Sequence record: NZ_CP049149.1
DNA: 64,000 bases
Strand: one strand, 5' to 3'
From: a plasmid
Positions 5,214 to 59,268 of this stretch are shown piece by piece. The notes under the pieces were generated by a model. It ran no database searches and was not told the origin of the DNA. It saw only the letters and a list, made by a program, of their open reading frames with translations. Position 1 is the first letter of the stretch. Each line of letters begins with the position of its first letter. The position numbers and the translations under genes were made by a program.

Positions 5214-5252
5214 GTCCGATATTGATAGATAAGTGCTTATCTAATAACATTA

Positions 5253-5281
5253 AGCCACTACATATAGTGGCTTTTTTTTTT
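5253..5281 (+). terminator. rho-independent terminator
   Basis: hairpin AGCCACTACATATAGTGGCT followed by T10 run, between resolvase gene and nrdA. Confidence 0.65.
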
Positions 5282-5290
5282 GGAGGACAC

Positions 5291-7639
5291 ATGATAACCA
5301 TCGTTAAACGTAACGGTTCAACTGAGCCGCTGTCAGAGGAAAAATATAATCGCGTTGTGATGTGGGGCGTAGAGAACATTCGCAACGTTAGCGCGTCTGC
5401 CATCGCTATGGGCGCAGCCGCAAGCATTTTTGATGGTATGACCACCAGCCAGCTGCATGAGGCTCTGGTGAAGTCAGCTGCCGATTTAATCTCTAAAGAG
5501 ACTCCGAACTATTCCCAGGTTGCGGCGCGTCTGAGCCTGTTCAAGATCCGCAAAGATGCGTTCGGCCAGTACGCTTACCCACACTTCTATCACCACATTG
5601 TGAGCAACGTTAGCCGCAGTGTTTATGATGAAGAGCTGCTGAAATCCTACACTCGTGAGGAAATCGACGAGCTGGGTGCCTACATCAAGCCTATGCGCGA
5701 CGAGTTTTTCAGCTATGCCGCCACCGTTCAGCTGGCCAGCAAGTACCTTGTTCAGAACCGCGTTACTGGTCAGGTTTATGAGGCGCCGCAGCAGCTCTAT
5801 ATGCTGGTGGCCATGTGCCTGTTCCAGAATTGGGAAGATGGCTGTGCGGGCAAATCTCGACTGGAGATGGTCAAAGGCTTCTATGACGTCACCAGTACCT
5901 TCAAACTCTCTCTGCCAACACCCATCATGGCCGGTGCTCGTACTCCGACTCGCCAGTTCTCCAGCTGTGTGCTGATTGAGGCAGAAGACAGCCTGAAAGG
6001 GGTTAGCGCTGCATCTGCTGCGATTATTGACTATGTATCGCGCCGTGCAGGTATTGGCATCGGCTTTGGTCGTCTGCGTGCGCTGGGCAGTGAGATCCGC
6101 AATGGCGAAGCTATCCACACTGGCGTTATCCCGTTCCTGAAACATTTCCAGACCGCAGTGAAGTCTTGCTCCCAGGGCGGCGTTCGTGGCGGCGCGGCGA
6201 CAGCGTACTACCCAATCTGGCACCTCGAAGTTGAGAGCCTTTTGGTAGTGAAAAACAACCGGGGTGTTGAGGAAAACCGCGTCCGTCACCTGGACTATGG
6301 CGTGATGATAAACCGTCTGATGTATCGCCGTCTGGTACGCAACGAAAACATCACTCTTTTCAGCCCACATGATGTACCGGACCTGTACGATGCGTTTTTT
6401 GCCGATCAGGACAAATTTGAAGAGCTGTATGCACAGTACGAAGCAGATGAGAGCATTCGTAAGAAGTCGATTCCGGCTGTGGAACTGTTCTCTACGCTGT
6501 TGCAGGAACGTGCTTCTACTGGCCGCGTGTATATCGCCAACGTTGACCATATGAACGAGCACGGGTCTTTCGATCCGGAAGTTGCGCCGGTTCGCCAGTC
6601 CAACCTCTGCGCGGAGATCACGCTGCCAACCAAACCGCTGGCTTACACTGACGATCCGAATGGTGAAATCGCGCTTTGCACCCTGTCTGCCTTTAACCTC
6701 GGGGCAATCGACTCTCTGGACAGCCTGAAAGATGTCGCGTTCTATGCGGTTGCGGCTCTGGATTCACTGCTGGACTATCAGGACTACCCGCTGGCTGCTG
6801 CCGAAGTTCCGGCAAAAGCACGTCGTAGCCTCGGCATCGGCGTAACCAACTTCGCCTACTATCTGGCCAAGAACGGCTTCAACTACTCCGACGCCGCTGG
6901 CAACCAGCTGGTGCATGAGACGTTTGAAGCGATCCAGTATTACCTCCTCGATGCAAGCTGCCGCCTGGCTGAAGCCAAAGGCGCGTGTGAGTGGTTCTCC
7001 CACACCAAGTATGCGAAGGGGCTGCTGCCTGTAGACCATTACCGCAAGACGCTGGACGCCAATCCAGAAACGTCCTTCGAACTGAAAATGCCGTGGGAAG
7101 AGCTGCGTGGCCGCATTCTCAAGCATGGTCTGCGTAACTCGACGCTGTCTGCCCAGATGCCTTGCGAGACTTCCAGCCAGATCACCAACTCCACCAATGG
7201 CATCGAGCCGCCGCGCGGTCCGGTTTCCGTCAAGTCTTCAAAAGACGGCATTGTGAAGATGGTTGTTCCGGATTTCGAGCAGCTGAAAGACCAGTACGAG
7301 TACCTCTGGGATATGCCGGACAACCACGGCTATCTGACGAAGGTGGCAATCATCCAGAAGTTCTTCGATCAGTCTATCTCGGCCAACACCAACTATGACC
7401 CGACTCGCTTCCCTGGCGACAAGGTTCCAATGATGAAGCTGCTTGAAGACTTGCTCTACGCGTACCAGCAGGGCGTCAAGTCCCTCTACTACCACAATAC
7501 GCGTGATGGCGCTGGCAAGCGCGACGATGAAGAGTCTGCCTCTCCGGAGCCGACTGTGGTGGTCAAGCCCGAACCAGTGGCTGAACCAGAACCCGTTGTT
7601 GAGCGAGAAGAAGAATACGACTGCGGTTGCAAGATCTGA
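5291..7639 (+). CDS. nrdA: ribonucleoside-diphosphate reductase alpha subunit (class Ia)
   Basis: colinear with enterobacterial NrdA: ATP-cone N-terminus, TPTRQFSSCVLIE, CSQGGVRGGAAT, PVRQSNLCAEI, SETSSQITNSTNGIEPPRG, C-terminal CGCKI; ATG 5291 after GGAGGACAC SD. Confidence 0.95.
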   Translation: MITIVKRNGSTEPLSEEKYNRVVMWGVENIRNVSASAIAMGAAASIFDGMTTSQLHEALVKSAADLISKETPNYSQVAARLSLFKIRKDAFGQYAYPHFYHHIVSNVSRSVYDEELLKSYTREEIDELGAYIKPMRDEFFSYAATVQLASKYLVQNRVTGQVYEAPQQLYMLVAMCLFQNWEDGCAGKSRLEMVKGFYDVTSTFKLSLPTPIMAGARTPTRQFSSCVLIEAEDSLKGVSAASAAIIDYVSRRAGIGIGFGRLRALGSEIRNGEAIHTGVIPFLKHFQTAVKSCSQGGVRGGAATAYYPIWHLEVESLLVVKNNRGVEENRVRHLDYGVMINRLMYRRLVRNENITLFSPHDVPDLYDAFFADQDKFEELYAQYEADESIRKKSIPAVELFSTLLQERASTGRVYIANVDHMNEHGSFDPEVAPVRQSNLCAEITLPTKPLAYTDDPNGEIALCTLSAFNLGAIDSLDSLKDVAFYAVAALDSLLDYQDYPLAAAEVPAKARRSLGIGVTNFAYYLAKNGFNYSDAAGNQLVHETFEAIQYYLLDASCRLAEAKGACEWFSHTKYAKGLLPVDHYRKTLDANPETSFELKMPWEELRGRILKHGLRNSTLSAQMPCETSSQITNSTNGIEPPRGPVSVKSSKDGIVKMVVPDFEQLKDQYEYLWDMPDNHGYLTKVAIIQKFFDQSISANTNYDPTRFPGDKVPMMKLLEDLLYAYQQGVKSLYYHNTRDGAGKRDDEESASPEPTVVVKPEPVAEPEPVVEREEEYDCGCKI

Positions 7640-7644
7640 TAAGC

Positions 7645-7667: not shown

Positions 7668-7770
7668 CATTTTGTTGCACGCCTTATTTTCACCAATAAG
7701 ATAACAACTTGTTTTGATAGTCATTAAAACAAATTGTTAAAACCATTCGATAACATTCAAAGGGAAACAC

Positions 7771-8994: not shown

Positions 8995-9870
8995 ATGACA
9001 TTCACGAATCTGACCGATCATCTTAAGCTTGCTGCCGACAAACTGGTCGGCTTCAAACCTGAGCCTTATGAATTGAATCCGGGCTACGCTATGGCGACAG
9101 AAAGCATCTACAAGATGGTTGACCAGTTCCACGAGCTGTTTCAGCACCCGCGTCGTGCCATGCCGGAGCCGTCGTTACTGCGTCTGCGCGCCAAGCTGAT
9201 CCACGAAGAAGCTGTCACTGAAGGCATCCCAGCTGCCAGGAACGGCGACATGACTGCTCTGCTGGATGCGATGGCTGACTTTCTGTATGTGGGCATCGGC
9301 TCAATGGTGGCGATCAAAGGCGGCATTTCTACCGGGATGAGCTATTACACCCAGGAACAAAGCGTAGATCGCTTCTTCGAAACCATCATGGTTCCGGGCA
9401 ACACCGTCTTTGACGATATGGCCATTCCGTTCCGGGAAGCAGAAGAAGCGGTCGACATGCTGAATGCGCTGGCAGACAGACTGGTAAAAACGAAAGTCAG
9501 TGATGCCGAACTCATTCAGGCGCTGCGCCGCGTAATGAACAAAATTTATGTGGCCTGCATGATGACCTACCGCCTTGCAGACTTTCTGGGTATCGATGTC
9601 GTCGAGCTGGTGGCTGAGATCCACCGTTCAAATATGACGAAGCTGTGGCCAGCTGATGCCGAGGAGCGTCGTGTAGCGGTAGAGAACTGCAAGTACGACA
9701 AAAATGATCTGGGCTTCCGTCATGCAGACGGCACCGAGATGATGATCGGCTTCCGTTTGTCCGATGGGAAGATCCTCAAATCCCCCACCTACAGCGATGT
9801 TGACCTGACTCCCTTCGTTGAAAAGGCAAAAACTTCTGCATTGTACGAAGTGGTTAAAAATCATTTGTAA
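8995..9870 (+). CDS. MazG-like all-alpha nucleoside triphosphate pyrophosphohydrolase (putative)
   Basis: EEAVTE ... DMTALLDAMADFLYV resembles the ExxE...ExxD metal-binding motif of MazG/dimeric dUTPase family; position between nrdB and thyA typical for phage dNTP house-cleaning enzymes. Confidence 0.4.
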   Translation: MTFTNLTDHLKLAADKLVGFKPEPYELNPGYAMATESIYKMVDQFHELFQHPRRAMPEPSLLRLRAKLIHEEAVTEGIPAARNGDMTALLDAMADFLYVGIGSMVAIKGGISTGMSYYTQEQSVDRFFETIMVPGNTVFDDMAIPFREAEEAVDMLNALADRLVKTKVSDAELIQALRRVMNKIYVACMMTYRLADFLGIDVVELVAEIHRSNMTKLWPADAEERRVAVENCKYDKNDLGFRHADGTEMMIGFRLSDGKILKSPTYSDVDLTPFVEKAKTSALYEVVKNHL

Positions 9871-9937
9871 GTACAAGCTTATCAAGTTATATTGACTGGG
9901 CGTGTTTTATTGTCCAAGTTCTTAATATCTTTTCCTG

Positions 9938-9965: not shown

Positions 9966-10051
9966 GCCCCAATTTCTAGCGTTGAAGGCTTCTGCCGGAT
10001 AAACTTGCATAAGTAGATATGTATGTACTTACCTATTAATGCGAGGTTGAT

Positions 10052-15674: not shown

Positions 15675-15903
15675 AACTGTATTGCTGAATAGCTAACCAT
15701 CATTCTATTTCAGAAAATTCCCAGATCGTTGAACTAAGCAGTGTAGATTTTAATGACTCTGAGTGTTTAATACGCTACATAAGACCATCCATAACCAGCA
15801 CCCAAAAAACGCGTCAGAATGCATTTCCTTTGCAAATTCTGGCGCGTTTTCTTTTGTTTGCGATTTGCTGTGCCAAATGAAACAATAGGTAAGCAGTTAC
15901 CTA

Positions 15904-16509
15904 ATGGAAAGAGCAATGATTGCAGCTGAAAAAATCAAAAAGCGAGAGCGAGATGCCTCTCTTCGAGACCTTTGGCGCACTCCCAAATGGTTGTTTATCG
16001 CCATCCAACGATATATAGGCGCCGAGTTCGATGTGGACGTCGCCTGCAACAAGGATAACGCGTTACTGCCCAACTACATCGGCGTTGAACGTGATGCCCT
16101 GAAAAGCAGCTGGGGTGAGCCTGGCACCGTGGCATTTCTAAACCCGCCCTACTCCCGGATATCTCCTTGGATCGACGCGGCCATTCGGGAGCAGGCGCGT
16201 GGCGTAACGACAGTCATGCTGATCCCACAGTCCCTCGATACCCAATGGTATGAACGCGCCACTGAGTGCGCCAACGAGACCGTTATTCTGTCTGGCGGCC
16301 GTGTGGCGTTTGTGGAGCCGGATGTCGAGCTGGGGCTGGTGGAGGTCAACGTGAATCCCGGTGGCAGTATGCTGGTCATCTTCCGTGGGTTTTGTCAGGA
16401 AGCTGGGCATGTCATCAGCAAGATACCGCTGGCGGTGATGAAAAAGCTGGGTGGTTATGATCCTGCCAATGTCATCAGAAAGAAAAGACCAGTTAAGAAG
16501 GCAGCTTGA
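15904..16509 (+). CDS. phage-type DNA N6-adenine methyltransferase (Dam-like)
   Basis: LWRTPKWLF, NPPY motif (FLNPPYSRISPW), VTTVMLIP typical of phage Dam MTase family. Confidence 0.8.
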   Translation: MERAMIAAEKIKKRERDASLRDLWRTPKWLFIAIQRYIGAEFDVDVACNKDNALLPNYIGVERDALKSSWGEPGTVAFLNPPYSRISPWIDAAIREQARGVTTVMLIPQSLDTQWYERATECANETVILSGGRVAFVEPDVELGLVEVNVNPGGSMLVIFRGFCQEAGHVISKIPLAVMKKLGGYDPANVIRKKRPVKKAA

Positions 16510-16523: not shown

Positions 16524-16592
16524 TGTTTCAGAACCTGCTTCCGTATATATAAATAACTAAGTACTAATTATTAATATATACAGAAACAGGCT
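16524..16592. repeat. large imperfect palindrome element, copy 1 (promoter/operator-like)
   Basis: TTCAGAACCTGCTTCCGTATATATAAATA...ATATATACAGAAACAGG; TTCAGA-N16-TATAAA gives sigma70-like spacing; near-identical copy at 44602-44656. Confidence 0.5.
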
Positions 16593-16708
16593 TTTAAAGT
16601 CTGTGTTTCTGAACCCACTCCCAGACCGATTTACACCTCCAGAACTCTCTGGAACCCCTCTCCAGACGCTCTAGAATCGTTTTTAAAGACACAGTAAGGA
16701 AAACTATC

Positions 16709-16939
16709 ATGGCATACCCGACGAACGTCGTAGCGCTCGTTGAGAGCGATTTTCTGGCCAAAGCCCGTGACATGATGAAAGATCGCGAAAAGGCTTTCAG
16801 TCTGTACGAATGGTCACTCAAATGCCTGCACGCAGGCGAGCATCGCGAGTTGCTGGAGCAGCTCTTAGGCGAACTTATCAATGAGGTGTTTGCACTCAAT
16901 GTCCAGCTTCATGGGCGAGATAATAACCAAACAGTTTAA
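16709..16939 (+). CDS. hypothetical protein (76 aa)
   Basis: ATG with AAGGAAAA SD downstream of palindrome element. Confidence 0.4.
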   Translation: MAYPTNVVALVESDFLAKARDMMKDREKAFSLYEWSLKCLHAGEHRELLEQLLGELINEVFALNVQLHGRDNNQTV

Positions 16940-17470
16940 TAGGTAAGTACAAACTATTTTAAGCCGTGATCGCCAGTGATAAAATCTCCGCGCTGGCAGA
17001 TGTATCTGCCAGCTCGACCTGATGGGTGGGGGATAGCGTCACTGGCGTCAGGTTTAAAAAAGCCCACTACCAGCGTAGAACCGGCACCGTTTAGGGGTTG
17101 GGGAAGGGGGAACCAAAGTGGGCAGAGACAAGGGTCACTTTATGATTGTCGAGTCTGGGATGTTTCGAGAGGTTGAATCCAGTACTCCCCTTCATAGAGT
17201 GTGGGAAGATCTCGGTTCTGGGGTGCTGTCATCCATAACTTCCCAAGCCTAAGCTGGCAGTAGACTTAGGTCATAACTTTTCAGGTTATGTAACGACCAG
17301 GTTGGTGAGGAATTTTTGTACTCACCTCCCTGGGAGAGTATTACCTGAAAAGACAACCTCTCACTTCGTTCGAGGTGAACTTCACTCACTTCGTTCGTTC
17401 AGTTCAGGGGATTTAACCCCTGTTCTGGGAAGTAAGTTTTTTTATTAATTTAAATACTTTACACGCACGC
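16940..17470 (+). other. 530-bp non-coding, hairpin-rich region (possible structured RNA/regulatory DNA)
   Basis: no credible ORF; perfect 20-bp palindrome CTGGCAGATGTATCTGCCAG (16993-17012), G-rich tract, direct repeat TCACTTCGTTCG x2, CAGGGGATTTAACCCCTG hairpin, then AT-rich block. Confidence 0.3.
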
Positions 17471-17524: not shown

Positions 17525-18118
17525 ATGACGACGAAGACACCAGCCCGACAAAAAACTGGCTGCCGGCCAAAGTCCAAACGAAACCATCCCCAGACCCGAT
17601 TCAAAACTCCCGCAGTCGACTTCAATCCCCAGCTTAAAACCGTAAAAGTGTTCAGTGACGGCTCCTGCCTCAAAAATCCGGGCGGGCCTGGTGGCTACGG
17701 CATTGTTCTCCAGTATCGCGATGAAGAGCGCGAGCTTTCTGATGGCTTCCACAGCACCACCAACAACCGCATGGAAATGATGGGCGCGCTGATGGCTCTG
17801 GAGCGGCTCAAGTACCCCTGTAACGTCATTCTGTATTCGGACAGCCAGTATCTCAAAAACGGCATGACGCTCTGGATGAAAGGCTGGAAGCGCAACGGCT
17901 GGGTGACGTCAGAGAAGAAGCCAGTGAAGAATGTTGATTTGTGGAAACGACTCGATGCAGCGGCCAGTCGACATAACGTTCGCTGGCAATGGGTCAAAGG
18001 CCATGCCGGACATCGCGAGAATGAGATCTGCGACCGGCTGGCAAAGATAGCTGCTTTCGCCGCAGCGGATACCCCACACAAACGAGATATCGGTTTTTTG
18101 GCTCAAAATGATAAGTAG
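17525..18118 (+). CDS. rnhA: ribonuclease HI
   Basis: ~55-60% identity to E. coli RnhA by eye ([48 protein letters not shown]); ATG 17525 with GGAG SD gives ~45-aa basic N-terminal extension not present in host enzyme. Confidence 0.85.
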
Positions 18119-18261
18119 GTATTTACCTATCATATTAAATCAGGTATCTTATCCATCGTCAGGATGACGAAGCGTCGGTAAGGCGCTGTTCCACGGATGG
18201 AACGCCCAAAGGCGGCTGGCAATGCCAGCCGCAACTCTTTCTGACATTGAATGGATTTCAC

Positions 18262-20691: not shown

Positions 20692-23600
20692 TTAAATCCT
20701 TCCTCCAACCCCTTTAAATTTTTCGATAAACGCCCCAATTTTTTGGAATACGGTCTGCTTTTTCGTTTTGTACTGAGGATTCAGTGGACTGAGTTTTGGT
20801 AGCGTCTCATTTAACTCCGTCCCATTTTCGGTAGCATATTCCCGTTTGAGTGATGTACGGATATAGCGCCTTGCCGCCTCTTCATTGAGGTTTTCTTCCT
20901 TAATCAACGCTTCCGCTTCCTGTTGCTGTTCACGCTGAGCATAGGTAAAGAATGCATCAATGATACTGGCCTTATCCGGCATGTCATCAAGGTTAGTTTG
21001 CTGAATAAAGTCAACAATCAGACCTTCTTTGGCACGGTTGCCCAGACTTGACCGGATTAAGCGTCGGACCTCTTCAGTCAGGGCTTCTTTACCCTTTTTC
21101 TGACGGTTGTGGTCAAAAATCAGGCCCAGAATGTAGTCCAGGTTAATCTCTTGCGACTTGAGCAGGTCAATTTCAAACACCACGTCATCCCAGTCCGTGG
21201 TTGATGTATCCCTGTCGTTTGCTGCTTTTTCACGTCGCTGCCAGTCCCGGATATCATTGTAAGCTGAGCGGTAGTCCTGAACTTTACGTTCGGCAGGGAG
21301 GCGAATGGTTTGTAATTCAGCAAATTTTTCATCATCCACGTAGTGCTCTGCTTTAAAGGTTTCTACCGCTTCCGGGTCACTAATATCAACCTTCTGCAGG
21401 GCTTTCAGCGTGGCAAATTCATCGTAGTTTTGCAGGATGTTTTCTGCCCGCAGATATTCACCAAACAGTTTGACGAAGGCTTTTTTCTCTTTTTCACTGT
21501 CGATACTGGCAGGGTCAGGGAAGCGCTGCTCCAGCTCCGAAACAATAGACATAAAACCTCGTTTAGCTTCGCCGGTTGCCGCATCGCTAAAGCCCTGCAT
21601 GTACTCTTCGTAGCTTTTTTCCAGTACCACATTCTTGGTGTTTTTGTCGCCAAAAAGTGTAATGGCATCAATGGTGGGACGCTCCAGGTCCCTGAAAGTC
21701 ACGATATTGCCGAAGGTTTTGGTTGCATCATAGATACGGTTGGTGCGTGAGAATGCCTGCATCAGACCGTGATAACGCAGGTTTTTGTCAACGAACAGAG
21801 TATTGAGAGTCGGAGCATCAAAGCCAGTCAAGAACATTCCCACCACGATGAGAAGGTCAATATCCTGATTTTTCACTCGTTGAGCTAAATCGCGGTAGTA
21901 GTTCTGGAAACCGTTACTGTCGGTGCTGAAATTGGTTTTAAAGTGATTGTTATAGTCATCAATGGCTGAATCCAGGAATTCCTTTGCGCTGCTGTTCATT
22001 GCACTGGTATCAAAACTTTCGTCGGTAATATCACCAATGGCGCTTTGCTCTTCATTAGCAGCAAAAGAGAAGATAGTTGCAACCCGAAGGCGTTTATAGC
22101 TGCCTGATTTTTTTGCTGCTTCTTCCTGTAGTACTTTAAACGTCGAGTAATAAGCTTTTGCCGCTTCCACACTGCTAACTGCTAACATGGCGTTAAAGCC
22201 CTTAGCTCCCGGGAAGGTTCGGTGCGTTTTCTGACGGAAGTTATTGAGAATGTATTGCGTTATTTCCTGGATACGCAGTGGGTGTAAAAATGCCTGTTGG
22301 TTTTCAGCCGCGCTGAGTTTTTTCTCATCAGTTTCCGTTTCAAGAGACTTAAACTGTGGGCGGACATCGTTATAGTCCACCTTAAACTTCAGCACTTTTT
22401 CATCACGAATCGCATCAGTAATGACGTAAGAATGTAATTCACGCCCGAAGACGCTGGCGGTGGTTTCTGCCCCCAGTGCATTTTCCGGGAAAATAGGCGT
22501 ACCAGTAAAACCAAACTGATAAAAGCGTCTGAATTTCTTTTTGAGGTTTTTCTGGGCCTCACCAAACTGGCTGCGGTGACACTCATCAAAGATAAACACC
22601 ACCTGCTGCTGATAGACGGGCAGGTCAGCTTCGGCTTTCATCAGATTATTGAGTTTCTGAATGGTTGTGACGATAATTTTGTTATCGTCCTTATCCAGGT
22701 TTCTTCTGAGGCCTGCTGTATTATCCGAACCATTGACACTGTCCGGAGAGAAGCGCTGATACTCCTTCATGGTCTGGTAATCGAGGTCTTTCCTGTCGAC
22801 CACGAAGAAGACTTTATCGATAAAGTCCAGCTCAGTAGCCAGACGTGCGGCCTTAAAGCTGGTCAGGGTTTTTCCTGACCCTGTGGTATGCCAGATAAAT
22901 CCACCGCTTTCGGGTTTTGACCAGTTCTTCGCTTTAAAAGAGCTGTTGATTTTCCAGAGAATGCGCTCGGTGGCGGCAATCTGATAGGGGCGCATGACGA
23001 GCAGCGTCTGGCTGCTGTCAAACACGCTGTAATTAAACAGAACATTCAGCAGAGTATGCTTCTGGAAGAAAGTGGCGGTAAAGTCCTTCAGGTCCTTAAT
23101 CAGAGTGTTATCCGACTTCGCCCAGTTCATGGTGAAATCAAAGCTGTTTTTATCCCGCTTAGTGGTACTGGCAAAGTACCGGGTATCGGTTCCGTTAGAT
23201 ATCACAAACAGTTGCAGGTATTTAAACAGAGAGTTGTCGCTGTTAAAGCTTTCCTTACTGTAACGGTGTATCTGGTTAAAGGCTTCACGAATCGCCACGC
23301 CGCGCTTTTTGAGTTCGATTTGCACCAGCGGCAGGCCGTTGACCAGAATCGTAACATCATAACGGTTAGCGTGTGAGCCGGTCTGTTCAAACTGCTGAAT
23401 GACCTGCACCTTATTGCGCAGCAGGTTCTTTTTATCTATCAAATAGATGTTTTCCAGACGACCATCATCAAACGTAAAATCACAGATATAGTCGATATGG
23501 ATTTTACGGGTTTTGTCCAGGCTGCTGTCACTGGGGCTGTCCAGATATTGCTCTGCGAAGCGCCGCCATTCACTTTCGTTAAACACCACACCATTAAGAC

Positions 23601-23808
23601 GCTGAAGCTGGTCCCGCACATTCGCCAGCATCGCAGTCGGTGACTTAACGGAGATAAACTCATAACCCTGATTAAGAAGATCCTGAATCAGCGCCCGCTC
23701 AAGGTCCGATTCGCTCTGGTAGCTGTCACCGGTATCCATAACTTTTGTGTATTTATCAAGGACGATAAAGTTATTGGATTCAGCAATAGTGTGTGTTTGA
23801 TGAGTCAT
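20692..23808 (-). CDS. hsdR: type I restriction enzyme R subunit
   Basis: SF2 translocase motifs WHTTGSGKT (Walker A), [10 protein letters not shown] (DEAH/DECH box), TGTPI, C-terminal helical domain; 1038 aa; low GC. Confidence 0.9.
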
Positions 23809-23929
23809 AGCGCATCCTTTGTGCCGCCTGGCAAGGGCCGGAAGGGAGTTAAGAGTGACTTCCGGCGTGTAAAAAATAGTCTATATACTGACCGGGTGTT
23901 AAGGTGGCCCGATCGGTAGCAATGGTCAA

Positions 23930-26751: not shown

Positions 26752-26999
26752 TTTGTATCCTGTTGTATGATTCTTAAGTACTGTTATTGGCCCGATTTTA
26801 TCGCAATTTCATATTGATGACAGGCTTTGTATGTCATACGTTGCACTGAGAGTTCGTTTGCCCGGTTGTGTAGCCAACACTCTTTCAGTCAGGCCAGTAG
26901 AAACGTTGTGCTGACGATAAATACTGAAGCCCCAATACTATCGGGGCTGAACGTTCAGTCGGTGAGAATTTCTTCATCCGTATCCATTGTGGATGGTGA

Positions 27000-41091: not shown

Positions 41092-41155
41092 AAAGCTCTT
41101 TCCTTCGTGCCTTTTGTATGTTAATTGGCTATTATAGTAAGTAATTACTTATGCA

Positions 41156-43157: not shown

Positions 43158-43404
43158 TTTGAAGATCGTAGAGCTGAAGCCATCGAAAGAGGCTGACAAC
43201 AACAACGTTGAAGTCATCCGCCTGCTGGAAGAAGCACTCCAGTACGCCAGAGAAGGCAAAAGCCAGAGCCTGGCACTGCTGATGATCAACAACGACGGCA
43301 GTGTGCTGGATTGCTGGCATAACGGTGGGCGTCCATACGTCATGGTTGGGGCGATGGAATCGCTTCGCCTGGACTTCATCAATGCCAATATCGAGCGTAG
43401 GTGA
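43150..43404 (+). CDS. small hypothetical protein (84 aa)
   Basis: overlaps ATPase stop; part of coupled operon. Confidence 0.45.
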   Translation: MPDLKIVELKPSKEADNNNVEVIRLLEEALQYAREGKSQSLALLMINNDGSVLDCWHNGGRPYVMVGAMESLRLDFINANIERR

Positions 43405-43409
43405 TCGAC

Positions 43410-44300
43410 ATGACAGGCATCATCATCAAACGCTACCGCCCGGAAGAGTTCCCGCGTCATCTGGACTTTCTGGAGCGTATGACCGTAACCAAAGGCACGG
43501 TTGAAGACTGGCACGCGCTGAAGTCGCTGCACTACAAGACGGATGGTAAGCCGTTCGCGCCAACGTATTACCGCTGCGAACTGGACGACCGGCTGGTGGG
43601 CGTCGTGGTTATGGCTTACCCGAAACTGCTGCTGGCGCCTCGCCATCGCATGTTTCCTAAGCTGAAGCCAACCACCAATACCACCGTGGCCAACCAGTAT
43701 TGGGGCCGGTACGTGAACAACAACTTTGCGGTGATCAGCCGTTCCGTTGTTGACACTCAGTACCGCGGTGTCGGCGTCTCCTATCGAATGATTAATCTGG
43801 TTAGCAGGATGCACGACCGGCCAATCATCGAGATCCAGTCGTCGATGAGCAAATACAACCCGTTCGCCATGAAAGCAGGGTTCCAGTTCATCCGTCCGGA
43901 GCGTCCGAAGAGCTATGAGAGTGCGTTGCGCGTCTTCCAGCGTCATTTCCGTTCTGACCCTGGCGACAACGAAGCGATCGTCAAAGAGCTGTTCGCCATG
44001 AGTGAGTCTCGCCGTCGTCGTGCGCTGCGCGATCTGGTCGCTGACTACCACAAGAACAGTTCCCTGGCCAAAGCCGGGCGTAATCGTGGCACGACGATTC
44101 AGGACATTGCCGACAGCCTGGTGGACGAGGCCAGCATCGTGAAGCTGCTCAAGGACATTCACAACCTGAGCTTCACGTCTCCGCTGTATGGCGTGTACCG
44201 AAACCCGGACTTTGGTCGTCAGCTGCCGGACACGCTGCCACTGCTGGCATTCGACAAACAGCCTTTGAATAAACCTCTTGAAATTGCATTACCGGCATAA
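43410..44300 (+). CDS. hypothetical protein with GNAT-fold-like N-terminal region (299 aa)
   Basis: VVDTQYRGVGVSYRMINLV resembles acyl-CoA binding motif A of GNAT fold; GTG 43401 overlapping upstream stop is alternative start. Confidence 0.5.
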   Translation: MTGIIIKRYRPEEFPRHLDFLERMTVTKGTVEDWHALKSLHYKTDGKPFAPTYYRCELDDRLVGVVVMAYPKLLLAPRHRMFPKLKPTTNTTVANQYWGRYVNNNFAVISRSVVDTQYRGVGVSYRMINLVSRMHDRPIIEIQSSMSKYNPFAMKAGFQFIRPERPKSYESALRVFQRHFRSDPGDNEAIVKELFAMSESRRRRALRDLVADYHKNSSLAKAGRNRGTTIQDIADSLVDEASIVKLLKDIHNLSFTSPLYGVYRNPDFGRQLPDTLPLLAFDKQPLNKPLEIALPA

Positions 44301-44309
44301 GGATTTGCC

Positions 44310-44576
44310 ATGACGTTGACCGACAAACAAAAAGACATCATCAAAACCATCAATTTAGGCCATGAGCGTGGGCATCTGCTCGATCTGGACGAGCTACTGG
44401 AAGTGCTGCCGTACAAAACGACCAAACAGAGTATGCAGTTCTCGATCCGCGCACTGGTGAAGAAGGGGCTGGTGGAGAAAGGAATGTGCCGCCAGCGCGG
44501 TGATTCCGGCTACCACCGTCGCACGCTGGGACTGACCACGTTAGGTCGTGCCAGAGCCAAATTACTGGTGATGTAA
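44310..44576 (+). CDS. winged-helix-like small protein (88 aa)
   Basis: helix-turn-helix-like segment SMQFSIRALVKKGLVEKG; basic C-terminus. Confidence 0.4.
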   Translation: MTLTDKQKDIIKTINLGHERGHLLDLDELLEVLPYKTTKQSMQFSIRALVKKGLVEKGMCRQRGDSGYHRRTLGLTTLGRARAKLLVM

Positions 44577-44601
44577 GTCGGTCTGGGAGCCAGTTTGAGA
44601 G

Positions 44602-44656
44602 CCTGCTTCCGTATATATAAATACTAAGTGACTTATTAAATATATACGGAAGCAGG
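44602..44656. repeat. large palindrome element, copy 2 (promoter/operator-like) upstream of terminase
   Basis: perfect 16-bp arms CCTGCTTCCGTATATA / TATATACGGAAGCAGG with 23-nt AT-rich loop; flanked by TTGAGA and TCTGAA; copy 1 at 16524-16592. Confidence 0.5.
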
Positions 44657-44771
44657 TTCTGAATACTCCCCAGCCCGGTTTTAAACACCCAGAAAACAAA
44701 TTGGTTAGGCACTGAATTAAACAAGTTGTTTAGGAGCGCAAGGATGCGCTCTGAGTGTTTTAGAGGGATCT

Positions 44772-45415: not shown

Positions 45416-46672
45416 ATGGCCATCCCGTCGTCTCTGAGTCTCGTACAGCTGCATTCTGGGCAGATGCAAGTCTTCCAGTCGCCACATCGTTTCAAAGTGG
45501 TGTGTGCGGGTCGACGCTGGGGTAAATCCCGGTTGTCGATCTCCACCATCATCCGCGCGGCAGCCAAAGAGAAGAAGCAACGTGTCTGGTACGTCGCACC
45601 GACGTACCAGATGGCTCGCCAGATCTTGTGGGATGACCTGCAGGAAGTTCTGCCGCGTAAATGGGTTCGTAAGAAAAACGACACCACGATGACCATCGTG
45701 CTGAAGAACGGCTCTGAAATCGCGCTGAAAGGTGCGGATAAGCCCGATACGCTTCGTGGTGTGGCACTGCACTTTGTGGTGCTCGATGAATTTCAGGATA
45801 TGAAGCCGGACACCTGGTACAAGGTACTGCGTCCGACACTGTCCTCTACCCGTGGCGGTGCGCTGATCATCGGTACGCCAAAAGGCTTCTCCGAGTTCCA
45901 CAAGCTGTGGACTATCGGTCAGAACAAAGATTTGCAACGCAAGGGGCAGTGGAAGAGCTGGCAGTTCGTTACGGCTGATTCTCCGTTCGTACCGAGCGCG
46001 GAAATCGAAGCAGCGAAGAACGATATGGACCCTAAATCGTTCGCACAGGAATACCTGGCCAGCTTCGAGAACATGTCCGGGCGCGTCTACTATCCGTTCG
46101 ACCGCAACGTGCATGTTAAGCCGCTCCAGTTCAATCCGAAGCTGCCGATCTGGGTGGGGCAGGACTTTAACATCGACCCAATGTCCTCGGTCATCCTCCA
46201 GCCACAGCCAAACGGCGAACTCTGGGCTGTCGATGAGCTGGTGCTGTTTTCATCCAACACCGCGGAAGTGTGTGACGAACTGGAGCGCCGTTACTGGCGC
46301 TGGAAGTCACAGGTCACGATCTTCCCTGACCCGGCTGGCGCCTACCGCCAGCACGCGCGCGGTGAATCGGACGTGGACATCTTCAAGGAAAAGGGCTTCC
46401 TGCGCGTCGATTATCCGAAGAAGCACCCGCCCATTGCAGACCGTGTGAACGCTGTGAACCGTATGCTGATGAGCGCTTCTGGTGAAACCCGACTGTATAT
46501 CGACCCGAAGTGCAAACACCTGATCGACTCGCTTGAGAAGGTTATCTATAAACCCGGCTCCCGCGATATGGATAAGACGGGTGGCATCGAGCACAGCGCA
46601 GACGCATTGGGTTATCCAGTTCATCGTAGGTATCCGGTGAAAAATCGTGTTATTCTTGGCGGTTCAAGGTAA
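45416..46672 (+). CDS. terminase large subunit
   Basis: Walker A VVCAGRRWGKS, Walker B HFVVLDE, C-terminal RNase H-like nuclease region. Confidence 0.85.
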   Translation: MAIPSSLSLVQLHSGQMQVFQSPHRFKVVCAGRRWGKSRLSISTIIRAAAKEKKQRVWYVAPTYQMARQILWDDLQEVLPRKWVRKKNDTTMTIVLKNGSEIALKGADKPDTLRGVALHFVVLDEFQDMKPDTWYKVLRPTLSSTRGGALIIGTPKGFSEFHKLWTIGQNKDLQRKGQWKSWQFVTADSPFVPSAEIEAAKNDMDPKSFAQEYLASFENMSGRVYYPFDRNVHVKPLQFNPKLPIWVGQDFNIDPMSSVILQPQPNGELWAVDELVLFSSNTAEVCDELERRYWRWKSQVTIFPDPAGAYRQHARGESDVDIFKEKGFLRVDYPKKHPPIADRVNAVNRMLMSASGETRLYIDPKCKHLIDSLEKVIYKPGSRDMDKTGGIEHSADALGYPVHRRYPVKNRVILGGSR

Positions 46673-46704
46673 GTAAGTGCATACCTATAAATGGAATTTA
46701 GCAA

Positions 46705-48279
46705 ATGGAATTGACTGACAAGCAAATCAAAGACCTAGTGGAGCGACGCCACCCGGAATACTTGAAGAAAAAAGAACATTGGGATTTCCTCGCCAGCACT
46801 TACGCTGGCGGGCGTGCCTGGTTCACCGACAACATCTTCCGCTACTTCAAAGAGGGCGATCAGGAGTTCAAGGAGCGTCTGGAGCGCGCCTACCGCTTCA
46901 ATCATACCCGCGAAGTGGTCAACCTCATCAACAAGTATCTGTTCAAAGAGGACATTCATCGCAACACCGATGAGGCACCGGAGCAGATCCGCCATTTCTG
47001 GAGGCGAGCCACACGCCAGAATGCTTCAATTGACGCATTCATGGCGGCTATCGATCTCCAGTCGTCAATTTATGGCCGTATCTGGGTTGTCGTTGACAGC
47101 ACCATGAATGGCGATGTGGAGTCCGTTGCTGACGAGAAAAACAAGGACGCGCGTGCCTACGCCTACTGGATTTCTCCGCAGCAGATGCTCGATGTCGCCT
47201 GGGATGACGATGGGAACATGCTTTGGGCGCTGATTGTGGAAGTGGCGCGTGACGATGCCGATCCGTTCACCTCAACCGGTCAGGAGTATCAGCGTTACCG
47301 CCTGTGGACACAGAACGAATGGTATCTCTTCCGTGAGGAAGTCAAAAGGGGATCTGGTGGCGCAGGCCGTCGCCAGTCAAAGGTCGTGCTGGAGGATTCT
47401 GGCGAGCATAAATTGGGCATGGTGCCGGTCTTCCCGGTTGATTGCATTGGTGAAAGCGAATCGCCTTATTTCAGCCCATCTCTCATCGACGATATCGCCT
47501 ATCTCGATCGTGCTGTTGCCAACTACCTGTCGAACCTTGATGCCATTATTCAGGATCAGACGTTCAGCCAGCTGGCCATTCCGGTGCAGTCACTGCTGCC
47601 AGGCGATGAAAACCATACCAAAGTCCTTGAAATGGGCACCAAGCGCGTCTTTACCTTCGATTCCGAGAGTGGCAACCAGCCGTTCTACCTGTCGCCAGAC
47701 CCGAAACAGGCACAGATGATCATCACCACCATTAAGACGGTGATTAACGAGATCTACCATTCCGTTGGGGTGGCTGGTGAGCGCACCAAACAGGACAACG
47801 CCCAGGGTATCGACAACTCTTCCGGCGCAGCCAAGATGTATGACTTCCAGCGCGTTAACAGTCTGCTGGTGACAAAAGCGGAACGTCTCGAAAGGGCGGA
47901 GCGCCAGATGATGCAGTTGGTAGCGAAATGGATGGGGATCAGTCTGGATGAAGATAACTCTCTCATCTCCTACCCGGAAAGCTTTGATATTCGTGGTCTG
48001 ACAGACGAATTTGCGGTTGCTGAAAAACTCGCGCTTCTGCAAGCGCCTGATTCTGTACGTCGGCACCAGATGGAAATGCTCATTGAGAAGGTGTTCCCGA
48101 ACATTTCCGAGGCGATGAAAAAGGAATTTGATAAAGACCTCTTGAATTTTCCGCCAAAAAATGATCTAAACACCCTTGAAAATAAGTCAGTACTTACTTA
48201 TGATCGAGGGGCAGCCCAAGCAAGCGGGCAAGATCAACCCCGAGGGAATGGGGACTCATCTACTCAAGAGACCGAGTGA
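46705..48279 (+). CDS. portal protein (putative)
   Basis: 524-aa ORF directly after TerL in virion module. Confidence 0.6.
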   Translation: MELTDKQIKDLVERRHPEYLKKKEHWDFLASTYAGGRAWFTDNIFRYFKEGDQEFKERLERAYRFNHTREVVNLINKYLFKEDIHRNTDEAPEQIRHFWRRATRQNASIDAFMAAIDLQSSIYGRIWVVVDSTMNGDVESVADEKNKDARAYAYWISPQQMLDVAWDDDGNMLWALIVEVARDDADPFTSTGQEYQRYRLWTQNEWYLFREEVKRGSGGAGRRQSKVVLEDSGEHKLGMVPVFPVDCIGESESPYFSPSLIDDIAYLDRAVANYLSNLDAIIQDQTFSQLAIPVQSLLPGDENHTKVLEMGTKRVFTFDSESGNQPFYLSPDPKQAQMIITTIKTVINEIYHSVGVAGERTKQDNAQGIDNSSGAAKMYDFQRVNSLLVTKAERLERAERQMMQLVAKWMGISLDEDNSLISYPESFDIRGLTDEFAVAEKLALLQAPDSVRRHQMEMLIEKVFPNISEAMKKEFDKDLLNFPPKNDLNTLENKSVLTYDRGAAQASGQDQPRGNGDSSTQETE

Positions 48280-50102: not shown

Positions 50103-50177
50103 CAATTTTTGTAGGTAATAACTTACCTATGTGTTAAGGGTGGGCTATACGCCCACCTTTTTTGTAGGAGCAAGAGT

Positions 50178-52736: not shown

Positions 52737-52810
52737 ATAAATAGGTAAATATATACTTACTATTGGCACAGTGAGAGTGCTGTTTTATCGGAAAAAGGAG
52801 TTTTCCAATA

Positions 52811-58801: not shown

Positions 58802-58844
58802 TTAACCCGGCCGCTCTTCGGGGCGGCCATCACAAGGATGTGAG

Positions 58845-59180
58845 ATGACAAGGAAAACTTTTACCTGGTATCCGGATTATGAGTCCGAGAAAACGGTTAA
58901 GCCCAATGTAACGATCCTGAGCTACGGCGATGACTATGAGCAGCGCCAGTCGCAGGGGCTTAATCGCATTAAAGAAGAGTGGTCTCTGACCTTTACACGC
59001 TCCTACGACATCATCAATGCCGTAGACGACTTCCTCACCGAGCGCGGCGCGGTTGAGTCCTTTTACTGGACGAACCCGCGAGGGAAGAAGATCGTGGTGG
59101 TCTGCGACAGCCATACTGTTAAACGCTACGAGGGCTATCAGGTGTTGACCGCAACCTTCCGGCAAGTGTTCGAGGCTTAG
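58845..59180 (+). CDS. minor tail protein (lambda gpM-like)
   Basis: YGDDYEQRQSQGLNRIKEEWSLTF aligns with lambda M FGDGYSQRAPAGLNANLKTYSVTL. Confidence 0.6.
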   Translation: MTRKTFTWYPDYESEKTVKPNVTILSYGDDYEQRQSQGLNRIKEEWSLTFTRSYDIINAVDDFLTERGAVESFYWTNPRGKKIVVVCDSHTVKRYEGYQVLTATFRQVFEA

Positions 59181-59268
59181 TTTCTCTTGCTGGATAGGTA
59201 AGCACTTATTTACTATTATTAAGGGGCGCTGACAGGATGTTGGCGCTCGTTGTTTCAAGGATGAAATC

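Follow-up and report, generated by a model that had tools for sequence, protein, structure and literature searches.

A 20-bp palindrome is found almost solely at the heads of transcription units in a phage-plasmid of the SSU5/pHCM2/pMT1 type. We put at roughly 55% the probability that this palindrome is the operator of a dimeric helix-turn-helix (HTH) global prophage repressor encoded by the phage-plasmid itself, most likely a small XRE protein. The window we analyzed is a 64,000-nucleotide stretch of plasmid record NZ_CP049149.1.

A symmetric repeat at transcription-unit heads

The consensus of the palindrome is ATARGTAAGT/ACTTACYTAT, two inverted half-sites whose centers lie ~10 bp (about one helical turn) apart. 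Its information content is symmetric, with peaks at T2, A3, G5, T6, A7 and the mirror positions. We called 14 copies strong in the window (the one at 9863-9882 among them is weak), compared with ~0.2 in shuffled sequences. Allowing up to 5 mismatches to the consensus gave 12 sites (0.25 in shuffles), and allowing up to 3 gave 10 (0.01 expected). Copies were scored in bits with a position weight matrix (PWM), and 17 window positions reached at least 16 bits against 0.1 in shuffles. The 14 copies, none of which is assigned to a strand, are listed here with adjoining predicted promoters and the positions of orthologous copies in related elements.

532-551: palindrome copy ATAGGTATGTAATTACTTAT, 27.7 bits; divergent gap with the SbcD-like gene on one side and a minus-strand gene, which ends at 441, on the other; adjoined by the minus-strand promoter-like TTCATA-17-TATAAT at 512-484; orthologs SSU5 63080, Cyrano 63199.
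5225-5244: palindrome copy ATAGATAAGTGCTTATCTAA, 23.3 bits; precedes nrdA and forms the spacer of TTGATA (5222-5227)-17-TAACAT (5245-5250), a predicted promoter with the same register in SSU5 67775 and Cyrano 67883; followed by a hairpin and T8 at 5252-5283.
9863-9882: weak copy ATTTGTAAGTACAAGCTTAT, 15.4 bits; left half provides the -35 of the predicted promoter TTGTAA (9865-9870)-17-TATATT (9888-9893); orthologs SSU5 72357, Cyrano 72458.
10017-10036: palindrome copy ATATGTATGTACTTACCTAT, 27.4 bits; thymidylate synthase start 15 nt downstream; orthologs SSU5 72511, Cyrano 72599.
15885-15904: palindrome copy ATAGGTAAGCAGTTACCTAA, 22.8 bits; divergent gap, 11 nt upstream of the Dam methylase ATG at 15916; orthologs SSU5 77651, Cyrano 77436.
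16939-16958: copy with only the left half good, ATAGGTAAGTACAAACTATT, 20.0 bits; orthologs SSU5 78709, Cyrano 78477 (upstream of CYRAN_81).
18111-18130: palindrome copy ATAAGTAGGTATTTACCTAT, 26.8 bits; right half provides the -35 of the predicted promoter TTTACC (18122-18127)-17-TATCTT (18145-18150), same register in SSU5 79904 and Cyrano 79651.
34164-34183: palindrome copy TATTGTAAGTACTTACCTAT, 20.3 bits; directly 3' of a terminator; left half provides the -35 of the predicted promoter TTGTAA (34166-34171)-17-TAGTAT (34189-34194), same register in SSU5 93165 and Cyrano 96686.
41133-41152: palindrome copy TATAGTAAGTAATTACTTAT, 20.7 bits; helicase/ParB-like divergent gap; TATTAT at 41130-41135 faces the ParB-like operon, and a perfect TATAAT adjoins the copy on the other strand; orthologs Cyrano 105107, Acinetobacter 31166.
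46669-46688: palindrome copy GTAAGTAAGTGCATACCTAT, 25.2 bits; portal start 16 nt downstream; forms the spacer of TTCAAG (46663-46668)-17-TATAAA (46686-46691), a predicted promoter; orthologs SSU5 2031, Cyrano 2020, Acinetobacter 37808.
48182-48201: palindrome copy ATAAGTCAGTACTTACTTAT, 27.8 bits; within the 3' end of the portal gene; spacer of the near-consensus predicted promoter TTGAAA (48176-48181)-17-TATGAT (48199-48204), identical arrangement in SSU5 3544 and Cyrano 3527.
50111-50130: palindrome copy GTAGGTAATAACTTACCTAT, 22.1 bits; follows the major capsid gene and is itself followed, 5 nt downstream, by a strong GC hairpin with a T-run; orthologs SSU5 5471, Cyrano 5443, Acinetobacter 41518.
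52741-52760: palindrome copy ATAGGTAAATATATACTTAC, 23.2 bits; precedes the Ig-domain tail gene; right half contains the predicted -10 TATACT (52752-52757) of TTGAAT-18-TATACT, same register in SSU5 9067 and Cyrano 9018.
59194-59213: palindrome copy ATAGGTAAGCACTTATTTAC, 25.8 bits; separates the tape-measure-side gene from the minor tail genes and is followed by a GC hairpin; orthologs SSU5 15589, Cyrano 15529, Acinetobacter 51724.

An earlier note on this DNA had proposed a motif scan for intergenic enrichment. That enrichment is present: 13 of the 14 copies are intergenic in a window that is ~14% non-coding (binomial p = 1.4e-10), and the exception, at 48182, lies within the last 100 nt of the portal gene. 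Each of the 11 places listed in the note holds a copy or variant of the palindrome, with several coordinates off by 2-10 nt; the strong copies at 532-551 and 48182-48201 and the weak one at 9863-9882 had been missed. The note correctly assigned the repeat to both early and virion modules, the early genes behind it including nrdA, thyX, dam, SSB, SbcD and replication genes. Its distance of 20-70 bp upstream of operon starts was too narrow, the range being 11-115 nt. A position just after a terminator, described as frequent, applies to 34164 only; the copies at 5225, 50111 and 59194 instead precede a GC-rich hairpin by 5-7 nt. The palindrome is also distinct, as had been claimed, from the other repeat family, AACAAnTTGTT: the two motifs have no intergenic gap in common in the window, Cyrano or the Cronobacter plasmid, and one in SSU5.

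Conservation in related phage-plasmids

The palindrome recurs at the same junctions in SSU5, Cyrano and the Cronobacter plasmid, with 25-27 copies in each, and elements from Salmonella, Escherichia, Klebsiella and Cronobacter have one consensus in common. In a distantly related Acinetobacter phage-plasmid, orthologous junctions carry the version ATCAGTCAsTACTGACTGAT, with 31 copies against 0.7 expected. This version differs from the window consensus in a mirror-symmetric manner, at positions 3/18, 4/17 and 7/14. A third lineage has the version TTAAGTAAGTACTTACTTAA. The idea of a transcription-factor site is well supported, in that a symmetric, protein-type site at transcription-unit heads is kept at orthologous junctions in all relatives examined.

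A consensus that spans elements from four enterobacterial genera might reflect a host transcription factor common to Enterobacterales, and the GTAAG/CTTAC half-site appears similar to boxes of NarL/UvrY-type regulators. We consider a host factor very improbable. A scan of 185,579 species genomes found no match to the perfect 20-mer; among the matches listed for the palindrome there was one per locus, in unrelated taxa, and its 18-mer occurred only as single copies in other viral contigs. Furthermore, the symmetric change of the motif in Acinetobacter elements accompanies a change in their own XRE protein.

A protein-binding site rather than a hairpin

A perfect 20-nt palindrome could fold, and several copies adjoin terminator-like hairpins or ribosome-binding sites. 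The phage-plasmid also encodes an FljA-like protein of a family (PF03614) described as acting on mRNA. The repeat might therefore work as an RNA or single-stranded DNA hairpin, whether a processing site, a terminator/antiterminator, a REP-like element or an N4-type hairpin promoter. We disfavor this explanation and give it hardly any weight. Watson-Crick pairs between mirrored positions were as frequent as expected from shuffling in three genomes (p = 0.30, 0.95 and 0.82). At pair 4/17 we counted G-C 17, A-T 14, A-C 12 and G-T 12, so that A·C mismatches were as frequent as compensated pairs. Mirrored mismatches overall were roughly equally of the G·T type (57) and the A·C type (47), with no G·U strand bias. 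Because mirrored positions do not covary, we conclude that the palindrome is not a hairpin. Both arms keep their sequence beyond mere pairing, an Rfam search of the window returned no match, and the FljA-like gene is missing from Acinetobacter, where the motif family persists. It consists of two half-sites that evolve independently of each other, which is what a dimeric protein binding double-stranded DNA would be expected to recognize.

Overlap with predicted promoters

Sigma-70-like promoters predicted near the sites scored higher toward the gene than in the mirrored direction (6.88 versus 5.69 bits, p = 3e-4). They use the palindrome as spacer, as -35 or as -10/start region, with the predicted -10 beginning at palindrome position 12, 18, 21, 26 or 35, and each of these registers is common to the window, SSU5 and Cyrano orthologs. 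Registers were similarly heterogeneous in Acinetobacter. These promoters are predictions in AT-rich DNA, and most sites lack a recognizable -35 and are A-rich just upstream. In the enterobacterial genomes we detected no -35 preference at a fixed register to the palindrome. The -10-like TAT(c)AT at its right end is equally mirrored at its left end (3.72 versus 3.65 matches; A2 and T6 in 31 versus 34 sites). The variable registers (at least five), none of them both strand-specific and fixed, fit an operator superimposed on ordinary promoters and not a new kind of promoter. In the strict sense, then, the promoter class suggested earlier is not supported, as no -35/-10 stands in a fixed, strand-specific register with the palindrome. 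Simple promoter occlusion does not explain some sites, because they end 1-17 nt before a start codon or lie upstream of a terminator-like hairpin.

The main rival to a repressor operator is an activator-dependent class of lytic promoters, in which a phage-encoded dimeric activator would bind the palindrome and recruit RNA polymerase, as at P1 late promoters. We judge this unlikely, and equally so the architecture it implies, with the palindrome centered ~20 bp upstream of the start and only a -10-like TAT(c)AT, no -35. It would fit the A-rich, -35-less upstream DNA and the TATCAT-like hexamers formed by the right end, and transcription units do start at the sites. Seven Acinetobacter sites carry TATACT for the right end on the gene-facing strand only (offset 17: 7 versus 0 mirrored; -10 match p = 0.005), and a distant lineage has TAAGAT on one side of the palindrome only. 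The many virion-module copies recall the multiple P1 late promoters, and P1 boxes in NC_005856 (AAGTTACTT, ATGTGACTT) have AAGT/ACTT half-sites like the palindrome core AAGTACTT. Against this model, the -10-like hexamer is as good on the mirrored side and no -35 register is preferred in enterobacterial genomes. An activator could not serve all of the promoters, because their registers differ by up to 23 bp. Sites stand before early and late genes alike, and at the repressor's own promoter one copy covers the start region, a position from which a bound protein should repress. The stronger induction of genes behind weaker sites, described below, is the opposite of simple activation. A tblastn search of four genomes with P1 Lpa gave nothing better than E = 1, though distant homologs may lie beyond its reach.

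Expression in the Cyrano lysogen

We compared the palindrome sites with published RNA-seq of the Cyrano lysogen (PMC9928086), where induction was only partial. Of 23 genes just behind a site, 21 showed only background expression in the lysogen, and CYRAN_81 was one of the two expressed genes. Expression falls on crossing a site (-1.31 versus +0.33 log2, p = 4e-4), and genes behind sites were preferentially induced in macrophages (+1.92 versus +1.00, p = 0.001). The gene divergent from XRE rose by +4.7 in macrophages, and Cyrano gene 12, behind the ortholog of 52741-52760, was strongly induced under stress. Genes with weaker sites were induced most (site score versus induction, rho = -0.49, p = 0.018, n = 23), a modest correlation that was not significant for one of three induction measures and came from several tests. 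These data show that transcription units begin at palindrome sites and are off in the lysogen.

An XRE protein as candidate binder

Our candidate binder is a family-specific XRE protein of 128 aa (CYRAN_45 in Cyrano, QXL99506 in the closest Cronobacter plasmid), whose gene lies outside the 64-kb window. The family is confined to SSU5-type and related phage-plasmids, where it is distributed together with the motif. Sequence searches against Pfam, NCBIfam and the PDB gave no match, and the protein matches PHROG 8 'transcriptional regulator' (E = 2.5e-9). A structural model (pLDDT 84-89 over residues 11-70) predicts a five-helix HTH DNA-binding domain that resembles C-proteins such as C.AhdI (TM 0.81, rmsd 2.1 A), P22 c2 (TM 0.80, rmsd 1.5 A) and the 434 repressor. 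There is no S24 peptidase domain, so induction presumably acts via another factor. Elements with a constant motif have an almost unchanged recognition helix, whereas in Acinetobacter both helix and motif differ. From sequence comparison and the model, we infer that the XRE protein is probably the binder and that palindrome and binder seem to have co-evolved across enterobacterial and Acinetobacter elements.

Sites also occur at the XRE gene itself. In Cyrano and the Cronobacter plasmid, TTTACA-16-TAATAT upstream of the gene is followed directly by the core GGTAAGTGCTTACC, and an E. coli lineage has a full palindrome there. The gap between XRE and its divergent gene holds 3 sites in Acinetobacter, and 2-3 are present in pPAU1, a remnant of 29 kb. 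In four lineages a copy covers the XRE promoter; alone, such a site is weak evidence for autoregulation because nearly every operon head carries one. SSU5 lacks the XRE gene and yet has 25 good sites, which could reflect a recent loss in a virulent derivative or binding by another protein.

The retention of sites in SSU5 would also suit a different phage-plasmid protein. The palindrome might be a binding or loading site for one of the two ParB-N proteins encoded at 41156-42522 or for the 88-aa winged-helix protein at 44310-44576, acting in DNA organization or as a KorB-like spreading silencer and not as a classical repressor. The ParB_N domains were confirmed, site 41133 heads the ParB-like operon, and SSU5 and the Cronobacter plasmid have winged-helix proteins that are 100% identical. 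When candidate regulators were searched against Acinetobacter by tblastn, only XRE and the winged-helix protein matched, and the annotation there includes two ParB-N proteins, so both kinds of protein occur where the motif family persists. Global plasmid repressors with multiple operators, such as RP4 KorA, offer a precedent (PMC2665229). We nevertheless think this assignment improbable. Nothing ties these proteins to the motif beyond any other conserved gene, and pPAU1 keeps sites around XRE while its annotation table lists no ParB-like or winged-helix gene. In Cyrano, the corresponding genes (CYRAN_119-123) belong to lytic operons under the motif's control and show only background expression in the lysogen, so their products cannot maintain silencing there.

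Proposed mechanism

In the repressor model, each genome would have ~25 operators that cover the core promoters of almost all lytic units, those for DNA metabolism and replication as well as those for virion and lysis genes. In the plasmid state, bound repressor would occlude RNA polymerase at each operator, and a lower-affinity copy over the repressor's own promoter would provide negative autoregulation. A drop in repressor activity, as might follow DNA damage or stress inside the cell, would release first the promoters whose operators are weakest. Here we infer repression by binding, the exact promoters and the transcription start sites.

Direct repressor control of late virion operons is unusual. 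We offer only tentatively the stronger proposal that one small XRE-type repressor directly locks all lytic units of a 100-kb phage-plasmid, even those for late virion and lysis genes, through ~25-30 dispersed operators and without an early-to-late activator cascade, the pair having co-evolved as a unit from Enterobacterales (SSU5, pHCM2, pMT1 and pKpn types) to Acinetobacter phage-plasmids. If this were true, derepression order would be set by operator strengths, and motif scores alone would predict the lytic timetable.

Comparison with known systems

We compared the palindrome with other multi-site regulatory systems. T4-type phages carry PeSLs, repeated cassettes of an early sigma-70 promoter with a stem-loop. 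Like the palindrome, these are short regulatory cassettes at many gene-block boundaries, often beside terminator hairpins; unlike it, they combine promoter and stem-loop and are not symmetric protein sites. The AACAAnTTGTT cassette of the window resembles PeSLs more than the palindrome does. The IncP plasmids RK2/RP4 silence modules coordinately through plasmid-encoded repressors with palindromic operators at many promoters, and KorB is such a global repressor with 12 sites. KorA of RP4 likewise has many palindromic operators (PMC2665229). KorA and KorB differ from the system described here in protein family, operator sequence and length, and their targets are conjugation and maintenance genes instead of a phage lytic program.

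Phage P1 also lives as a plasmid. Its C1 repressor controls early expression and the lysis-lysogeny decision, and its 11 late promoters each contain a 9-bp inverted repeat (PMC10695390). As proposed for the palindrome, a single repressor acts through many operators (Olpa and Oc1a-e as annotated in NC_005856) along a genome of ~95 kb, placed at the promoters of individual lytic operons and of the repressor gene itself. However, C1 operators are asymmetric 17-mers, and tblastn found no C1 homolog in the phage-plasmid. Late virion operons of P1 are under the activator Lpa and not C1, whereas the symmetric 20-bp palindrome precedes early, virion and lysis operons alike and its candidate binder is a small Cro/CI-fold protein. 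The P1 late promoters share with our sites a multi-copy short inverted repeat with AAGT/ACTT half-sites, just upstream of a -10-like hexamer without a -35 and often among virion genes. The Lpa box spans 9 bp around a central base, keeps a directional register and stands before late genes only; the palindrome is symmetric including its flanks, varies in register and serves early genes too, and no Lpa homolog was detected by tblastn.

Operators of lambdoid phages (lambda, 434, P22) are palindromes of 14-20 bp with half-sites one helical turn apart, located between the repressor gene and a divergent lytic gene, and they are bound by dimers with the fold predicted for XRE. Lambdoid phages have few operators, clustered at the immunity region, and express late genes via antitermination, in contrast to ~25 operators dispersed over 100 kb and an XRE protein that lacks the S24 domain. 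In the literature searched we found no description of the palindrome.

Implications for SSU5-type elements

The SSU5 type counts Salmonella Typhi pHCM2 and Yersinia pestis pMT1 among its members, together with hundreds of plasmids from Klebsiella, E. coli and Enterobacter. Related elements of Acinetobacter are often found in clinical isolates, and some members of the group carry resistance genes. The literature we searched held no account of how SSU5-type elements silence ~100 kb of phage genes. An operator, a candidate repressor and a map of ~25 putatively controlled promoters make this silencing directly testable. The mirror-symmetric change in the site between enterobacterial and Acinetobacter elements provides a natural data set on repressor-operator co-evolution. 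Knowledge of the operator and its repressor would improve transcription-unit annotation and may give handles to induce or cure these plasmids.

A recurrent intergenic palindrome

The window (64 kb, 51% G+C) belongs to a phage-plasmid of the SSU5/pHCM2/pMT1 type. Its virion half is 97.8% identical to the Cronobacter sakazakii plasmid pGK1025B_1 (CP078107.1), and at 80-90% identity it matches phages SSU5 and Cyrano as well as hundreds of plasmids from Klebsiella, Escherichia, Enterobacter, Yersinia and Salmonella. We compared four whole genomes: SSU5, Cyrano, the Cronobacter plasmid and an Acinetobacter baumannii phage-plasmid. A minus-strand block of large genes in the window (20692-28152) matches type I restriction-modification genes (HsdR, S, M) of other phage records. 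SSU5 has no DNA matching this block, which appears to be an accessory insertion.

All the places at which the earlier note listed a 20-bp palindrome hold the palindrome or a variant, at slightly shifted coordinates. Twelve window sites lie within five mismatches of ATAGGTAAGTACTTACCTAT (0.25 in shuffles), and a separate pattern test found 10 matches at three mismatches or fewer against 0.01 expected. Strong copies at 532-551 and 48182-48201 were absent from the earlier list. We derived an iterated, symmetrised weight matrix (22 bits; consensus ATARGTAAGT/ACTTACYTAT, slash at the centre) and used it to list true sites with scores of 14 bits or more. This gave 14 sites in the window, 25 in SSU5, 26 in Cyrano and 26 in the Cronobacter plasmid, with 0.2-0.5 in shuffled sequence under the same matrix. 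What looked like a 4-nt central insertion at 52741 (9067 in SSU5) proved to be a normal site with the usual register.

The intergenic placement claimed for the palindrome held up: 13 of the 14 window sites are intergenic, with non-coding DNA making up about 14% of the sequence (p = 1.4e-10). Across whole genomes, gaps account for 12-18% of the DNA and hold 23 of the 25-27 sites. Counterparts occur at the same gene junction for 14/14 window sites in Cyrano and 13/14 in SSU5. The sites had also been described as often following terminators, which is true of 34164 alone in the window and not of the rest. GC-rich hairpins lie within 5-7 nt downstream of sites 5225, 50111 and 59194.

The hairpin AAGCCACTACATATAGTGGCTT, followed by T8, occupies 5252-5283, between a palindrome and the nrdA start codon. 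SSU5 and Cyrano keep it, as does Acinetobacter in the corresponding position, and it looks like a terminator or attenuator. It may also resemble an NrdR box.

Exact-pattern scans of viral and genome collections listed, besides SSU5-like contigs, single and unrelated (GTAA)n-type palindromes. These scans indicate that multi-copy use of the palindrome is specific to the SSU5-type group. Among the matches listed are lone copies of the 18-mer TARGTAAGTACTTACYTA in many unrelated genomes, notably MAGs of Terriglobia and other Acidobacteriota; these copies could be (GTAA)n-type palindromes that arose by chance, or a conserved element of another kind.

Protein site or hairpin

Over 65 sites, Watson-Crick mirrored pairs occurred as expected for independent columns (p = 0.30, 0.95, 0.82). 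The variable pair 4/17 was G-C in 17 cases, A-T in 14, A-C in 12 and G-T in 12, and G·T-type mismatches (57) were as common as A·C-type mismatches (47). An Rfam search of the window gave no match. On the absent covariation, the lack of G·U bias and the Rfam result we rejected a hairpin or RNA element, a function that we consider highly improbable for the palindrome. Because the pairs do not covary, the two halves evolve independently toward one consensus. Independent half-sites one helical turn apart are the signature expected of a homodimer on double-stranded DNA. Left and right half-sites did not differ significantly in the enterobacterial set (p = 0.32), and their asymmetry in Acinetobacter was borderline (p = 0.059).

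Relation to promoters

The right end of the palindrome together with its flank often reads TATCAT, and the left end mirrors this hexamer (mean -10 matches, 3.72 versus 3.65 mirrored; A2 with T6 in 31 versus 34 sites). No -35 stood out in a search across fixed offsets from the palindrome. With the -35 inconsistent and the -10-like hexamer mirrored, we rejected a fixed-register sigma-70 promoter. The earlier suggestion of a promoter class, if taken strictly, lacks support on the same point, since palindrome and promoter elements share no fixed register.

We also took the best sigma-70-like promoter within 50 nt of each site in any register. Predicted promoters scored 6.88 bits toward the downstream gene versus 5.69 on the mirrored strand (Wilcoxon p = 3e-4). 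The predicted -10 begins at motif position 12, 18, 21, 26 or 35, so the part of the promoter under the palindrome would vary among -10, spacer and -35 from site to site. In every case the orthologous sites of the window, SSU5 and Cyrano share the arrangement.

Predicted promoters at window sites (same arrangement in orthologs in each case)
5222-5250, TTGATA-17-TAACAT
18122-18150, TTTACC-17-TATCTT
34166-34194, TTGTAA-17-TAGTAT
48176-48204, TTGAAA-17-TATGAT

If these predicted positions, which differ by up to two helical turns, are right, an activator could not work from all of them; a repressor, which need only obstruct, could.

Expression in the Cyrano lysogen

We re-analysed the per-gene RNA-seq table of the Cyrano lysogen (PMC9928086, supplementary file 2). 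In LB, 21 of the 23 genes directly behind a site are at background (median 8.6 versus 9.8 for all genes), and crossing a site lowers expression (mean log2 step -1.31 versus +0.33 at other genes; p = 4e-4). In macrophages at 6 h relative to medium, site-linked genes gain +1.92 versus +1.00 log2 (p = 0.001), and the step at sites rises by 1.23 versus -0.38 at other genes (p = 8e-5). The gene divergent from that of the XRE protein, a candidate prophage repressor, gains +4.7 log2 in the same comparison. Background level, step and induction together indicate that transcription units begin at the sites and are silent during lysogeny.

Poorer consensus matches went with higher induction (rho = -0.49, p = 0.018 for the macrophage versus LB change; rho = -0.45, p = 0.03 for the level), suggesting that the weakest sites leak first; for the macrophage versus medium change the correlation was not significant (rho = -0.32). 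This pattern is predicted by a repressor and not by a simple activator. It bears on the idea that the palindrome marks activator-type promoters like those served by Lpa, the late-gene activator of phage P1. Seven Acinetobacter sites carry a one-sided TATACT, which counts in favour of such promoters; the predicted registers shift by up to two helical turns, and the greater induction of weaker sites is contrary to simple activation. We regard this alternative as unlikely.

A 44-codon "ORF" at 17118-17249 is a homolog of CYRAN_81; few Cyrano genes are active in the lysogen, and this is one of them (117 counts versus 9.8 background). Its protein identity is 95-98% among genomes only ~80% identical in DNA, and an Rfam search of the locus was without match. 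It could encode a small regulatory RNA or a peptide.

Candidate binding proteins

By tblastn we found no homologs of P1 Lpa or of the P1 repressor C1. A LuxR-type regulator was rejected as binder, being present only in the Cronobacter plasmid and absent from the window, SSU5 and Cyrano. Regulators kept across the enterobacterial genomes include an FljA-like protein (PF03614), an 88-aa winged-helix protein, a HicB/excisionase-like protein and two ParB-N proteins, among others.

The Acinetobacter plasmid CP137931.1 is syntenic with SSU5-type elements and carries 31 copies of ATCAGTCAsTACTGACTGAT against 0.7 expected. Copies stand on the virion side before portal, after capsid, before major tail and after the tape-measure gene, and at other shared junctions before thyX, before nrdA and in the helicase/ParB gap. 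The divergent gap at the XRE gene holds three more. The motif family thus persists in an element in which the FljA-like, phrog_1513, phrog_2620 and phrog_4054 proteins were undetected, and we rejected these four as binders. When candidate regulators were compared with Acinetobacter by tblastn, only the XRE and winged-helix proteins matched; ParB-N proteins are also annotated there. The Acinetobacter consensus differs from that of the window in mirror symmetry, A:T becoming C:G at 3/18 and 7/14 and R:Y becoming A:T at 4/17. The XRE recognition helix is a nearly invariant YKNxNNLSLIKSGK in enterobacterial elements, with variants such as YKYQNQVSF, and FKRPNVLSMIKSGE in Acinetobacter.

The gene of the 128-aa XRE protein (CYRAN_45 in Cyrano, QXL99506.1 in the Cronobacter plasmid) adjoins an integrase gene and runs opposite to the rest of the genome. 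The authors of the Cyrano study marked its product, which is expressed in the lysogen, as the master repressor. In the Cronobacter plasmid the gene lies beyond the part covered by the window, and it is missing from SSU5. Upstream of it, a predicted TTTACA-16-TAATAT is followed immediately by GGTAAGTGCTTACC, the palindrome core minus its outer triplets, over the predicted start; an E. coli lineage has a full palindrome site there, ATAGGTAAATACTTACCAAT. At 60% identity or above, the family occurs only in SSU5-type plasmids; about 820 enterobacterial plasmids encode the XRE homolog, and ~150 Acinetobacter plasmids of ~108 kb have one at 39-48% identity. We found no distant homologs outside phage-plasmids, and P0050, considered as a divergent homolog, was merely a frameshifted copy. 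The modelled N-terminal domain has a Cro/CI fold, with C.AhdI, P22 c2 and the 434 repressor at TM ~0.8 and rmsd 1.5-2.1 Å.

Photorhabdus asymbiotica pPAU1 (29 kb) keeps the XRE gene with 2-3 palindrome sites in its regulatory gap, and its annotation table lists no ParB-like or winged-helix genes. The binder is probably the XRE protein. Binding by another DNA-binding protein of the phage-plasmid, for which the winged-helix and ParB-N proteins would be candidates, we judge improbable, and a host-factor site very improbable indeed.

Besides the XRE repressor, pPAU1 has kept RepB, an integrase, a block of tail genes and several copies of the palindrome, and it looks like a decayed SSU5-type phage-plasmid.

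Two loci of the window encode regulators named here. The operon at 41156-44576, directly before terS, has a conserved gene order (two ParB-N proteins, an ABC-type ATPase, a small ORF, a 299-aa protein and the 88-aa winged-helix protein) that is also present in the Acinetobacter element; the winged-helix protein of SSU5 is 100% identical to that of the Cronobacter plasmid. A full-length homolog of FljA, the Salmonella phase-1 flagellin repressor, is encoded at 37725-38243 on the minus strand (PF03614, E = 1e-92). Every enterobacterial relative has it and the Acinetobacter element lacks it; it could allow the phage-plasmid to shut down host flagellin.

Other repeat families

The window's other repeat, AACAAnTTGTT, is part of a longer cassette, GATAAT-N14-AACAAnTTGTT-TAAGGAG-ATG, with ~14 nt between GATAAT and AACAAnTTGTT and the ATG 13-20 nt after TAAGGAG.

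AACAAnTTGTT cassettes in the window
7703-7738, 18962, 19676, 20390, 27016, 28315, 29011
30458, 30887, 32013, 33766, 34674, 35594, 44695-44730

The AACAAnTTGTT sites are sometimes paired, 25 or 51 bp apart, and the cassette heads accessory genes, nrdB, parA (in SSU5) and terS. Per genome (n = 4), ~21-22 gaps hold the palindrome alone, 10-14 the cassette alone and 0-1 both; no intergenic gap of the window holds both. This near-exclusive use bears out the earlier view that the two families are distinct.

A third family, at 16526-16598 and 44595-44663, is a long inverted repeat with an AT-rich centre and arms CCTGCTTCCGTATATAT ... ATATATACGGAAGCAGG. It occurs twice in SSU5 (~33469, ~78319) and twice in Cyrano (~31179, ~78099) and has the look of a terminator acting in both directions. 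Weak, spurious matches to the palindrome matrix arise in its AT-rich loop.

A predicted prophage operator

We predict, with a probability of roughly 0.55, that the palindrome is the operator of a global prophage repressor of the phage-plasmid. The palindrome would lie over ~25 lytic promoters, and a weaker copy would autoregulate the repressor gene. Within this reading, which protein binds, whether it represses and where transcription actually starts are inferred. Against it, SSU5 keeps the sites without the XRE gene, a believable -35 is missing at many sites, some copies run up to start codons or stand ahead of terminator-like hairpins, seven Acinetobacter sites have the one-sided TATACT, and the expression correlations are modest.

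The logic of the palindrome is like that of the dispersed P1 C1 operators or of the KorA/KorB regulons of IncP plasmids, and its chemistry is like that of the lambdoid operators to which Cro/CI-fold dimers bind. The palindrome shares copy number and an AAGT/ACTT half-site with P1 late promoters but fails three of their defining features: a fixed-distance -10, an Lpa-family activator and restriction to late genes. Full-text literature searches returned nothing on either core sequence, nor regulatory work on SSU5, pHCM2 or pMT1. If the repressor reading is true, the palindrome set would be a hitherto undescribed regulon of repressor and operators, in phage-plasmids of a group that is widespread in the clinic.
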